Under the pieces are notes generated by a model that ran no database searches, was not told the origin of the DNA, and worked only from the letters and a program-made list of their open reading frames with translations. A DNA stretch of 31,293 nt from Candidatus Aphodomonas merdavium (GTDB taxonomy: Bacteria; Bacillota; Clostridia; Christensenellales; Aristaeellaceae), in contig DVLH01000021.1 in NCBI GenBank assembly GCA_018715585.1, positions 1 to 31,293 on the forward strand. Reading direction: 5' to 3'. Shown here in pieces: positions 1,815 to 5,289 of this stretch (its first letter is position 1; the number at the start of each line of letters is the position of its first letter). A program made the position numbers and the translations under genes.

Positions 1815-2717
1815 ATGGCAGGCAGGTTTTCCCGCAAGAACGTCGCGCTTGTTTTGCTCTTTACGTTGCTGCTGGTGCTGATCGTAGGCGCGTCGCTGCT
1901 GTTGACGCGCAAAGAATCACCCGTCGTGCTAGCGTTAGAGGCCGGCCCGCAGAGCTGGTGGGCGTGCGCCCTGCCGTCTTTTTCTGGCAGCGCCTACCGC
2001 ACAGCAATCTATCTGGACAATCAATCTGTCCTACAGGCGATGGAGGAAGAAACGGCCGACGCGGCGCTTGTACCCTATGAATCCCTCAGCGCCCTTCCTG
2101 CCGGCTACAAAAGCGCCGCCGTCGTCTCCTGCCTAACGCTCACCGCGGTGGAGCAAAGCGGTGCAAAGGCTGCAACGCTCTCCGCCTTTGCAGGGCGCAC
2201 GGCGCTCATCCCGCAAGCCCTGCGCGACACGCCTGCGTCGGCAATGCTCACCACCTTGTTAGAACGCTCCGGCGTCGCGTTGGACCTTCGCTACGTGGCG
2301 GAGGAAGAAATCCTTGCCGCCGCGCAAAACGGGACGCTCGAGCTAGCCTTCCTGCCTGCGGATCTGGCGGCACAGGTAACGTCCGCCCAGCCGGCGCTGC
2401 GCCCATCGCTCGACCTGGCGGACGCATGGGAACAGACGGCAGGCGCACCTCCGGCGGCATGGGTGCTCGTGCTGAGCGAGCGCGCAATGCAGCAAAAGCC
2501 AAACGGCGTCCGCGAGCTCCTCAGTGCCTGCGAAAGCTCGCTGGGATACGCGCACAAAAGCCATCAAAAGGCAGCCTTGCTCGCGGTGGAAGCCGGGCTG
2601 GACGGCGGCTATGATGCTGCGCAAATTCAGGCCATGTTGCCGCGCGCAGGGTATCGCTTTCTTTCCGGCGCCCAGGCGCGCACGTCTATCCAGGCGCGTG
2701 CCGCGTTGGAGCTTTGA
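1815..2717 (+). CDS. Membrane-anchored periplasmic-binding-fold protein, NitT/TauT (MqnA/MqnD/SBP)-like, divergent, 300 aa
   Basis: AAGGAGG RBS; N-terminal hydrophobic helix; segments ADAALVP, LELAFLP, LDLADAW...VLVL...P.GVRELL resemble clostridial NitT/TauT binding proteins. Confidence 0.65.
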   Translation: MAGRFSRKNVALVLLFTLLLVLIVGASLLLTRKESPVVLALEAGPQSWWACALPSFSGSAYRTAIYLDNQSVLQAMEEETADAALVPYESLSALPAGYKSAAVVSCLTLTAVEQSGAKAATLSAFAGRTALIPQALRDTPASAMLTTLLERSGVALDLRYVAEEEILAAAQNGTLELAFLPADLAAQVTSAQPALRPSLDLADAWEQTAGAPPAAWVLVLSERAMQQKPNGVRELLSACESSLGYAHKSHQKAALLAVEAGLDGGYDAAQIQAMLPRAGYRFLSGAQARTSIQARAALEL

Positions 2718-2775
2718 CGCGGCGGCATCAGCCGCGCAAACGCCGTACTTTCTTTGCATTCCGGCGAAAAAAGGC

Positions 2776-2804
2776 TTGCATTAACGGTGAAATAATGTTA
2801 TACT
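2776..2804 (+). promoter_or_regulatory. SigA promoter of rpmB
   Basis: TTGCAT (2776-2781), 17 nt, TATACT (2799-2804) with extended TG. Confidence 0.85.
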
Positions 2805-2837
2805 AACCTTCGCGACAAACTCAGGGAGGGGAAGAAC

Positions 2838-3029
2838 ATGGGCAAATACTGTCAGATTTGCGGAAAGGGCCTTATGAACGGCAACAACGTCAGCCATTCC
2901 GTGCGGCGTACGCATCGCCGCTGGGCTCCGAACACGCAGCGCGTGCGCGTTGTTGTGGAAGGTTCCGTTTGTCATATGAACGTATGCACCCGTTGCCTGC
3001 GCAGCGGCAAGGTGCAGCGCGCTCAGTAA
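2838..3029 (+). CDS. rpmB: 50S ribosomal protein L28 (zinc-binding C+ form), 63 aa
   Basis: CQICGK...GNNVSHS.RRT.RRW.PN...[11 protein letters not shown]; GGAGG RBS. Confidence 0.98.
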
Positions 3030-3061
3030 AAAGAGCGACCCGCAACGCAAAGCAAAAGATT

Positions 3062-3100
3062 CGGCGTTCCGCAGCAAGTGGATGCGCCGTTTTCTTTTTC
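3062..3100 (+). terminator. Probable intrinsic terminator of rpmB
   Basis: Imperfect stem CGGCG-t-TCCGC / GTGGA-tg-CGCCG followed by TTTTCTTTTT. Confidence 0.6.
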
Positions 3101-3104
3101 ACGC

Positions 3105-3128
3105 AAAAAAGCCCCGCTCCGGCGGGGT
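3105..3128 (-). terminator. Intrinsic terminator after the SpoVM-like ORF
   Basis: Minus strand CCCCGC-CGGA-GCGGGG-C then TTTTTT, about 10 nt after the stop at 3139; short T run on the plus side too. Confidence 0.75.
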
Positions 3129-3138
3129 CTTTTCTGCC

Positions 3139-3219
3139 TCAGCGCTTTCTGCGCGCCAATATCCTCAGTAGGCCGCGCAAGCCGCGCGGTGCGCGCAAGC
3201 AGATCATCCGTACTTTCAC
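3139..3219 (-). CDS. spoVM: SpoVM-like spore morphogenetic peptide, 26 aa (MKVRMICLRAPRGLRGLLRILARRKR); absent from the ORF track
   Basis: RBS GAGGAGGTGA 4 nt before GTG; PRGLRGLLR aligns with SpoVM PKFLGGIVR; same length as B. subtilis SpoVM; convergent with rpmB as in B. subtilis; own terminator. Confidence 0.75.
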   Translation of the reverse strand: MKVRMICLRAPRGLRGLLRILARRKR

Positions 3220-3255
3220 CGGCTCACCTCCTCGCGCCTTTTTGCAAGCTGCGCC

Positions 3256-3456
3256 CTACGACGCCCGGCAGACCAGGTAGCCCAGCAGGATGAGCAGCGC
3301 GCCCAAAAGCGCTAGGAAAAAGCCAAACACAAAGCTGAAAAAAATCAGCGCCACGCCCGCAACGATCAGCCCGATGCCCAGCCTGCTGGCCGGGTAGAGC
3401 CGCTCCTGCGCCGGGCCGCTGCGGCAGTTGCCGCAACCTCGCTTCCATCCGTCCAT
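3256..3456 (-). CDS. Small membrane protein, 66 aa, N-terminal CxxC and long hydrophobic C-terminal segment (likely two helices)
   Basis: GAGGTG RBS 6 nt before ATG at 3456 (track start 3465 lies inside the RBS); CGNCR then LGIGLIVAGVALIFFSFVFGFFLALLGALLILLGYLV. Confidence 0.7.
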   Translation of the reverse strand: MDGWKRGCGNCRSGPAQERLYPASRLGIGLIVAGVALIFFSFVFGFFLALLGALLILLGYLVCRAS

Positions 3457-3484
3457 GCGGACCACCTCGTTGCAGAATATGACG

Positions 3485-3522
3485 AAAGCCCCGCGGAAAG
3501 AACGGGGCTTTTTTTGTTTTTT
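3485..3522. terminator. Terminator-like hairpin between the CoA-disulfide reductase gene and the small membrane gene
   Basis: AAAGCCCCG-9 nt-CGGGGCTTT; long T run on the plus side, only TTT on the minus side. Confidence 0.6.
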
Positions 3523-3609
3523 CGCCGTGCCAGGCGAAAGCGCGAAGGCACGTCCATTTTTTGCGCCTGCAGCGCCGTGCGGTCGTTTTTTGTCGCAGCG
3601 CCGCGCCGC

Positions 3610-5289
3610 CTATCGGCACAATCCGCAGCCGCCCACCGCGCTTTGCGCCGCAAACGCGCCGTGGCTGTAAAACCCATATCCACCGGCAACGTTATAGCAA
3701 GCGATCCCGTTTTGCATGAGGATGCGGCAGGCCAGATAGCTGCGCAGCCCGCTTTGGCAATAGACGTAAAACGTCTTCCCCTGGGGCAGTTCGGATAAGC
3801 GCTGCCTCAGCTCGTCCAGCGGCAGGTGCAGCGCGCCCGGGATATGGCCGCTGCGGTATTCCCCGTCCGTGCGCGTATCCAGCAGCACAGTCCCTTCCGG
3901 CGGGCACAGCGCCTGCCGCCAGTGCACCTGGCGCACCTTGCCCGTCAGCAGGTTCTCGATGATAAACCCCGCCATGTTCACGGGATCCTTGGCGGAAGAA
4001 TACGGCGGCGCGTACGCCAGCTCCAGCTCCGCCAAGTCCATGCCCGTCATGCCCGCGCGGATGGCGGCAGACAGCACGTCCACGCGCTTGTCCACCCCTT
4101 CGCCGCCAACGGCCTGTGCGCCCAGGATGCGCCCGGACGGCTTTTCAAACACGACCTTCAGCGTCATGTTGGCCGCGCCGGGATAATACGTGGCATGGGA
4201 CGGCGGGCTTAAAAGCGCATAGTCGCACGCAATGCCGGCCTCCTGCGCCTGGCGGGCCGTCAAGCCCGTTCCGCCCACCGTCATGGTAAAGACCTTGAGC
4301 ACGTTTGACCCCTGCGATCCCCTGTATTCGCTGGCGATGCCGCAAATGTTGTCGGCAGCAATGCGCCCTTGCTTGTTGGCCGGCCCTGCCAGCGCGATCA
4401 GCGCCGGCTGCCCCGTCACCAGGTGGCTCACCTCCACCGCATCGCCCACCGCATAGATGTCCGGGTCGCTCGTGCGCATGTGCGCATCCGTGCGGATGGC
4501 GCCGCGCAACCCCAGCGCAAGCCCCGCCTCCTTCGCCAGCGCGCTTTCCGGCGCAACCCCGGCGGCTAAAATGACAAAATCGGAAACGATGGGCGTATCG
4601 TCCTGGATAAACGTGGCGATACGGCCCTCGCGCCTTTCAAACCCCGTCGCCGCCGTGTTCAGGCGCAGCGTGACGCCATGCCTGCGCAGCTGCTCATGCA
4701 CGAGCGCGGCCATGTCCCCATCGAGCGTGGGGAGCACCTGATCCGTCAGCTGAACAACCGTCACGTCCAACCCCCGGTTGCGCAGGTTTTCCGCCATTTC
4801 CAAGCCGATAAAACCGCCGCCGATCACCGTCGCCGTCCGCGGCGCTTTTTCGTCCACGAAACGGCGGATGCGCAGCGTATCTTCTACCGTGCGCAGCGTA
4901 AAGAGCAGCGGCCCTTCCACCCCGGGCAGCGGCGGCACAATCGGCCGTGCTCCCGGCGCAAGGATCAGCTTGTCGTACGCCTGGGTATAGAGCGTTCCAT
5001 CCTCCAGGCGGCGCACCTGCACCGTCTTGGCTTTGCGGTCAATGCGCACGGCTTCCTGGCGGATGCGCACATCGATGGCGAAGCGGCTCTGCAGGCTTTC
5101 CGGCGTCTGCACGGTCAGCTTCTCGGCCTCCTTGATCTCCCCGCCGATATAATACGGCAGGCCGCAGTTGGCATAGGAAACATAGCCGCTGCGCTCGAGC
5201 ATGATGATTTCCGCCTTCTCGTCCAGCCTGCGCAGCCGTGCCGCAGCGCTCGCACCGCCCGCAACGCCGCCAACAATGACAACTTTCAT
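3610..5289 (-). CDS. CoA-disulfide reductase family FAD oxidoreductase with C-terminal rhodanese domain, 559 aa
   Basis: GGVAGGASAA FAD motif, SYANCGLPYY redox Cys, GGGFIGLE NAD motif, LAYAPPYS, rhodanese YCQSGLRS; AAGGAGG RBS. Confidence 0.93.
   Translation of the reverse strand: MKVVIVGGVAGGASAAARLRRLDEKAEIIMLERSGYVSYANCGLPYYIGGEIKEAEKLTVQTPESLQSRFAIDVRIRQEAVRIDRKAKTVQVRRLEDGTLYTQAYDKLILAPGARPIVPPLPGVEGPLLFTLRTVEDTLRIRRFVDEKAPRTATVIGGGFIGLEMAENLRNRGLDVTVVQLTDQVLPTLDGDMAALVHEQLRRHGVTLRLNTAATGFERREGRIATFIQDDTPIVSDFVILAAGVAPESALAKEAGLALGLRGAIRTDAHMRTSDPDIYAVGDAVEVSHLVTGQPALIALAGPANKQGRIAADNICGIASEYRGSQGSNVLKVFTMTVGGTGLTARQAQEAGIACDYALLSPPSHATYYPGAANMTLKVVFEKPSGRILGAQAVGGEGVDKRVDVLSAAIRAGMTGMDLAELELAYAPPYSSAKDPVNMAGFIIENLLTGKVRQVHWRQALCPPEGTVLLDTRTDGEYRSGHIPGALHLPLDELRQRLSELPQGKTFYVYCQSGLRSYLACRILMQNGIACYNVAGGYGFYSHGAFAAQSAVGGCGLCR

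Follow-up and report, generated by a model that had tools for sequence, protein, structure and literature searches.

The minus strand of the window (the whole 31,293-nt stretch of DNA analysed here, from Candidatus Aphodomonas merdavium) carries at 3139-3219 a gene of 26 codons that very probably encodes a divergent ortholog of the sporulation peptide SpoVM, as judged by sequence comparison. The gene forms the second cistron of a two-gene module that lies convergent with rpmB, and standard annotation models miss it across a lineage of uncultured gut Clostridia. The locus is made up of the following features.

3139..3219, minus strand: spoVM-like gene with a GTG start, 26 codons (MKVRMICLRAPRGLRGLLRILARRKR) and a TGA stop, recognised by its orthologs and by RNA-library contigs
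3224..3233, minus strand: Shine-Dalgarno region GAGGAGGTGA, with an equivalent Shine-Dalgarno sequence before every ortholog
3105..3128, both strands: intrinsic terminator common to the two convergent genes, with a GC stem at 3112-3127 and T-runs on either strand
2838..3029, plus strand: rpmB (ribosomal protein L28), the convergent neighbour, matched by TIGR00009 with an E-value of 1.7e-21
3256..3456, minus strand: first cistron, encoding a 66-aa protein of an uncharacterised family (alignment A4) with an N-terminal CxxC and two predicted transmembrane (TM) helices, each with a GxxLIxxG motif
3462..3468, minus strand: Shine-Dalgarno sequence GAGGTGG of the 2-TM gene, 5 nt before its ATG at 3456
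3474..3481, minus strand: candidate -10 box CATATTCT of the sigma-E/sigma-K type (CATAnnnT), 17 nt before the ATG of the 2-TM gene
3497..3503, minus strand: possible -35-like T-rich element GTTCTTT, weak in sequence, 15 nt upstream of the -10 box

The peptide gene reads from the GTG at 3219..3217 through 25 more codons to the TGA at 3141..3139, giving the product (M)KVRMICLRAPRGLRGLLRILARRKR. A 4-nt spacer, GCCG, separates GAGGAGGTGA from the GTG, and the GGAGG core lies 7 nt 5' of the start codon. Since other genera of the family have ATG at the equivalent position (MAVKMIC.., MAIRVIC..), the GTG is taken as the start and the proline as residue 11. A terminator scan found, on both strands, a 6-bp all-GC stem (3127..3112) enclosing a GGAG loop and followed by CTTTTTTG. 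The hairpin begins eleven bases past the stop of the peptide gene, and the same hairpin, read on the plus strand, can terminate the convergent rpmB, so that the two genes, 109 nt apart from stop to stop, have one terminator in common. The first-pass annotation of this DNA had described the ribosome-binding site, the GTG, the 26-aa frame, the TGA and the terminator at 3105-3128 on the minus strand, and all of these were found exactly as described.

We compared the rpmB loci of 40 relatives, several of which showed a gene for a small membrane protein followed by one for a 22-27-aa peptide, convergent with rpmB. A profile (A1) built from four such rpmB-adjacent peptides matched 15 of the 40 relatives, with whole-genome E-values from 1.8e-14 to 1.3e-5. 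Every one of these matches lay in a short frame that ended in a stop codon and had a start codon (ATG, GTG or TTG) preceded at 5-9 nt by a GGAGG-like site. The window peptide matched its own family profile with an E-value of 1e-10. Extending the search to 300 genomes of the class yielded another 16 loci, spread over 15 additional genomes. We also scanned a species-representative genome collection with a degenerate DNA pattern for C-x-[RK]-A-P-R-G-x-R-G-x-L-[RK], which returned 28 loci; 28 of 28 were such ORFs, with zero false matches, and all came from metagenome-assembled genomes (MAGs) of uncultured gut or rumen Clostridia. The orthologous ORFs total 58, each with a Shine-Dalgarno sequence, and many are away from rpmB. 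No copy was detected beside rpmB or elsewhere in G001, a genome of the same genus that is 88% complete. A possible second copy in the window's own MAG (G000:C217:19-51, minus strand, MGVYCLKAPRLKFQFEP..., E 0.08) lies at a contig end, has no Shine-Dalgarno sequence and diverges after PRL, and is probably a chance match.

Comparison with the congener G003 showed how the frame has drifted. Ten of codons 1-21 differ, with eight changes synonymous and two conservative replacements (L8V and I20M), and with blastn at default settings only rpmB itself aligns between the two loci, the DNA beside it being too diverged. Among the 28 pattern-selected genes the entropy at the three codon positions was 0.82, 0.24 and 1.48, values that are partly circular, as 13 codons have their first two positions set by the pattern. 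The habitat of the species is the chicken gut, and in a gut metatranscriptome (run X16) an assembled RNA-library contig spans 3134-3403 at a depth of 10 with 1 mismatch, while a contig from another library (run X15) spans 3190-3419. Each of the two contigs bridges the upstream 2-TM gene and the peptide gene. Within 2700-4200, run X16 covers nothing beyond 3134-3403, a restriction that speaks against DNA carry-over. These are assembled contigs of libraries without strand information, and they show neither timing nor sigma-factor dependence. Taken together, these results establish that the 26-codon frame is a real, conserved and transcribed small gene.

Assignment of the peptide to the SpoVM family was less direct. 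The window peptide and its congeners gave no match to PF08183, NF033436 or NF011327 even at E <= 10, and a search of all of NCBIfam with the window peptide returned nothing at the same threshold; the cut-offs of the three SpoVM models (20.6, 31 and 55 bits, respectively) were not reached. Over the whole of the window's own MAG, PF08183 gave just a noise match inside a 389-aa ORF and NF033436 gave none, and PF08183 found only noise across 41 genomes of the order. Direct BLASTP of the window peptide against B. subtilis SpoVM found nothing. Profile searches of PDB sequences with alignment A3, which holds 26 family members, and with the narrower alignment A2 did not retrieve 2MVH, and their sole return was a chance 'LRGLLR' match in NDUFA12. 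The B. subtilis SpoVM sequence that the first-pass annotation had quoted was verified as that of PDB 2MVH, which PF08183 matches with 61 bits.

A graded series of intermediates nevertheless joins the window peptide to accepted SpoVM sequences. NF033436 (SpoVM_broad) matched 18 of the 26 members of A3, start aligned to start, with 1 above its cut-off. Scores fell from 52 bits for an Acutalibacteraceae member, through 23-25 bits for other Clostridia and 14-20 bits for other families of the window's order, to 12-18 bits for three genera of its own family; the remaining members, including those of the window's genus, gave nothing. The 52-bit member (MEE0946396.1) bears the NCBI name 'stage V sporulation protein SpoVM', and it was the sole one present of 10 family peptides looked up in a collection of 15 billion proteins, the other 9 being absent. 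Alignment of A3 with B. subtilis SpoVM (2MVH) by hhalign gave a probability of 90.9% and an E-value of 1.2e-6 over 22 columns, with proline on proline, and A2 gave 84%. The member from G027 showed 43% identity to B. subtilis SpoVM over 21 residues (BLASTP E 6e-6). Homology to accepted SpoVM sequences is thus indicated transitively; because the direct searches and the PDB profile search miss it, it rests on intermediates and on one profile-sequence alignment of a 26-residue peptide of low complexity. The proposal that this is a divergent SpoVM ortholog gains support from the graded SpoVM_broad matches and the hhalign result, and the curated models miss the window peptide itself. Over the 41 genomes of the order, SpoVM_broad reached its cut-off in none, although 30 have SpoIVA, and the lineage profile recovered the peptide gene in 16. 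A separate observation was made in G038, where another sub-threshold SpoVM candidate (C24:21579-21626, 21.4 bits) is convergent with rpmB.

The residues that matter most in SpoVM are represented in the window peptide. Proline is the only invariant column among the 26 homologs, and Pro9 is the only fully conserved residue of SpoVM (Ribis et al., PMC5607322). In the hhalign register, the B. subtilis residues K2, I6, P9, I15 and R17 correspond to R4, L8 (V in congeners), P11, L17 and R19 here, so that the functionally critical K2, I6, P9 and I15 (roles from PMC5607322) are identical or conservatively replaced. Like its B. subtilis counterpart (PF08183; NF011327), the peptide is 26 aa long (below about 30), with only one invariant proline, which is preceded by a short N-terminus of basic and aliphatic character and followed by a putative amphipathic helix bearing P-[KR]-x-L-x-G-[IL]-[VL]-R and a basic C-terminus; both genes are convergent with rpmB in genomes that have sporulation genes. 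The first-pass annotation had pointed out the retained motif, the proline at position 11, the loss of the phenylalanines and the richness in arginine, and each of these was confirmed.

The differences are nonetheless considerable. About 5 of 24 aligned residues are identical between the window peptide and B. subtilis SpoVM, and the proline is at 11 rather than 9 owing to two extra N-terminal residues, which are common to the whole family (f1). A cysteine invariant in this subfamily occupies the position of B. subtilis T5, PRGLRG stands in place of PKFLGG, Phe3, Phe11 and Phe23 are missing, and arginine substitutes for Gly13. Net charge is +10 as against +5, and mean hydrophobicity is much lower (0.20 as against 0.68 for the helix). 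Clostridial SpoVM (NF033436, for example C. difficile SpoVM and MEE0946396.1) forms one family with the window peptide by graded similarity, but the window peptide falls below detection by that model (cut-off 31 bits), has PRG[LIM]RG instead of PKFL[SG]G, and carries the invariant cysteine. The putative helix RGLRGLLRILARRK has L14, L17, L18 and L21 on its apolar face and R12, R15, R19, R23 and R26 on its polar face. Its hydrophobic moment of 0.52, compared with 0.58 in B. subtilis SpoVM, is not significantly above that of shuffles of the same residues, 7-9% of which reach it. Part of the arginine excess fits the 59% G+C of the genome. As a speculation that follows from these differences in charge, hydrophobicity and sequence, insertion into the membrane may be shallower and more dependent on anionic lipids.

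The peptide gene starts 36 nt past the stop codon of the gene for the 66-aa 2-TM protein, and a 2-TM gene immediately precedes the peptide gene in about 22 of 26 loci across the class. Members of the 2-TM family are 49-72 aa long, with GxxLIxxG in both helices, a P-x-W-x-W turn in most and an N-terminal R-C-Y-P or CxxC. The 2-TM protein matched no family in Pfam or NCBIfam, and its database homologs are 'hypothetical' or unnamed in 57 of 57 cases. B. subtilis spoVM is not known to have such an upstream partner gene. The layout does resemble that of C. difficile, in which a gene for a protein of about 50 aa precedes spoVM near rpmB under a mother-cell sigma factor: spoVM there is sigma-E dependent and co-transcribed behind CD25622, which encodes 50 aa of unknown function and was called unique to Peptostreptococcaceae (Ribis et al., PMC5607322). 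CD25622 and the 2-TM gene are both small and immediately upstream of spoVM, and are positional counterparts; the 2-TM family, unlike CD25622, spans many families of Clostridia. Assuming that the two are related, the upstream small membrane protein would be far more widespread than 'Peptostreptococcaceae only'. Covariation of the peptide cysteine with a cysteine in the N-terminus of the 2-TM partner was also considered, and was dropped as inconsistent across loci.

In 15 of 26 loci the first gene of the module is closely preceded by a CATAnnnT box, against a background of 0.0011 per nt (binomial P 5e-12). In loci that have no 2-TM gene, the box is located 24-41 nt before the peptide gene itself. 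In B. subtilis, CATA-type -10 boxes belong to sigma-E (CATACAnT) and sigma-K (CATAnnnTA) promoters. The box in the window is a putative mother-cell element that would suit sigma-E and sigma-K alike. The GTTCTTT element is kept in the three genomes of the genus and sits in the loop of a terminator-like hairpin. This hairpin (aaaaaaaGCCCCG..CGGGGC, window 3482-3520, minus strand) follows the CoA-disulfide reductase gene (3610-5289) and overlaps the -35 region of the putative module promoter, which places a terminator and a putative promoter within about 40 nt.

We then considered the neighbourhood of the gene and the sporulation genes of the genomes that carry it. Proximity to rpmB is conserved among spoVM-carrying organisms (Ribis et al., PMC5607322), and the convergence with rpmB on which the first-pass annotation had drawn was upheld in the window. 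The same arrangement was seen in G003, G025, G026, G029, G030 and G038; overall, the peptide gene and rpmB converge at 6 of 16 order-level loci, as well as in G038 and at 4 loci found with the DNA pattern. On the far side of rpmB, between it and groEL, the window has a 300-aa ORF (1815-2717, plus strand) that matched no family except Pfam VitK2_biosynth, below threshold (E 0.0013).

SpoIVA (TIGR02836) scored over its cut-off in 30 of the 40 relatives. All 15 of the peptide-positive relatives were SpoIVA-positive and the peptide was found in 0 of the 10 SpoIVA-negative ones (one-sided Fisher P 0.004, although the relatives are not independent). The class-level carriers likewise had SpoIVA in 15 of 15 cases (P 0.011, the genomes again being related), a co-occurrence that weighs little because SpoIVA is common in the class sample as a whole (228 of 300). 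Altogether, each of the 30 other peptide-positive genomes that were tested had SpoIVA above its cut-off, and G208 has the peptide gene some 100 nt downstream from spoIVA. The MAG that contains the window (2.10 Mb in 319 contigs, 84% complete) has sigE (373 bits) and spoVAD (457 bits), both over cut-off, together with spoIIIAE (220 bits) and two full-length genes, one spoIID-like and the other spo0A-like. A search of this incomplete MAG for spoIVA found none, and all three congeners possess the gene; its absence most likely reflects an assembly gap. The suggestion that the organism sporulates is partly supported by these five genes, and spoIVA is the part of the expected set that was not recovered.

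A further group of genomes of the same order drew our attention. G090, G153, G181, G208 and G338 (loci L090, L093, L094, L096 and L098) measure 0.8-1.0 Mb, are 99-100% complete and have SpoIVA over cut-off. Their SpoVM-like peptides have a charged N-terminal extension of 8-14 residues and a helix without glycine (..KIICIKAPKWMRPLLKPF..), and in 3 of the 5 the peptide gene is about 100-850 nt downstream of spoIVA. The presence of sporulation genes in genomes this small merits attention.

SpoVM is a very small peptide that marks the membrane of the forming spore, and the mechanism that we propose follows that of the established SpoVM of B. subtilis and C. difficile (PMC5607322; bioRxiv 10.64898/2026.07.09.737436). 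The two-gene module would be transcribed in the mother cell from the sigma-E/K-type promoter with the CATATTCT -10 box. The peptide would form an amphipathic helix after its invariant proline (P11 here, P9 in B. subtilis), and would help to tether SpoIVA, the ATPase of the coat basement layer, through its N-terminal aliphatic position (L8 here, I6 in B. subtilis). By analogy, we infer that the window peptide localises to the forespore and binds SpoIVA. A predicted complex of the peptide of G003 with its cognate SpoIVA (L134:194-1684, minus strand) scored 0.22 where the mark was 0.34, a value that counts neither for nor against binding. C. difficile can largely do without SpoVM (PMC5607322), and because of this the functional weight of SpoVM in Clostridia is uncertain.

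Other explanations of the frame fared less well. That it is no gene, and merely a chance opening in the spacer between two convergent transcription units, might be imagined from its 26 codons and from the GC-rich DNA around it (62% in the window), in which short open frames are common; protein-level conservation with synonymous drift, 58 independent orthologous ORFs with Shine-Dalgarno sequences, many of them not beside rpmB, and RNA-library contigs covering the frame leave this virtually no room, and the profile, pattern and RNA results have already refuted it. We regard as highly improbable a cationic amphipathic peptide of the type I toxin or antimicrobial kind, unrelated to sporulation. 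A short, arginine-rich, amphipathic product with a strong Shine-Dalgarno sequence and a terminator would suit such a peptide, but the gene is single-copy (the weak look-alike with E 0.08 aside), syntenic and vertically conserved across the order, no antitoxin RNA or repeat context was seen, and the homology signals lead to SpoVM. The restriction of the peptide to SpoIVA-positive genomes, among the other carriers tested, also speaks against a role outside sporulation.

A closer competitor to a SpoIVA-anchoring SpoVM is a small cationic membrane peptide that descends from SpoVM, or merely resembles it, and no longer anchors SpoIVA, acting for example with the 2-TM partner in another step of envelope biology or sporulation. 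The failure of the curated models on the window peptide would be expected of such a molecule, as would its charge of +10 and low hydrophobicity, the invariant cysteine and N-terminal extension that canonical SpoVM lacks, the near-constant coupling to a 2-TM protein and the failure to find spoIVA in the 84%-complete MAG; the near-dispensability of SpoVM in C. difficile points the same way. Yet the sequence gradient to bona fide SpoVM is continuous, the equivalents of K2, I6, P9 and I15 are kept or conservatively replaced, SpoIVA accompanies the peptide in all 30 other carriers tested, with spoIVA adjacent in G208, and the upstream partner has a counterpart in C. difficile, where SpoVM also has a small upstream partner gene. 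We therefore think a loss of the anchoring role unlikely, and retain a divergent SpoVM as the preferred reading of the gene.

If the peptide is a SpoVM, its association with the 2-TM gene invites a broader suggestion, which we offer tentatively and which may well prove wrong. SpoVM in Clostridia might be half of an ancient and widely conserved two-gene membrane module rather than a stand-alone curvature sensor; the 2-TM partner would assist in the insertion, positioning or regulation of the highly cationic SpoVM at the forespore membrane, and the cysteine-bearing, arginine-rich and N-terminally extended subfamily would have co-evolved with it.

Neither SpoVM nor its position near rpmB is new, and its poor annotation was also known (PMC3533761). 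Listings of SpoVM give it for 'some, not all' clostridia, and the question whether distant versions had gone unnoticed was raised by Galperin et al. (2012; PMC3533761); the peptide described here appears to be a distant version of that kind. What is new is a divergent subfamily, marked by two extra N-terminal residues, an invariant cysteine and PRGxRG, that is invisible to the curated models throughout the order (0 of 41 genomes at cut-off) and largely absent from protein databases (9 of the 10 peptides looked up). The known mechanism of SpoVM is unchanged by these findings. They correct the phylogenetic profiles of sporulation genes for uncultured gut Clostridia, and they supply MAGs with a second sporulation marker, beside rpmB. 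They also widen the sequence space of a model curvature-sensing peptide, in which the proline is invariant while the phenylalanine and glycine positions can be replaced by arginine, and the conserved 2-TM partner gene provides a concrete lead for sporulation researchers.
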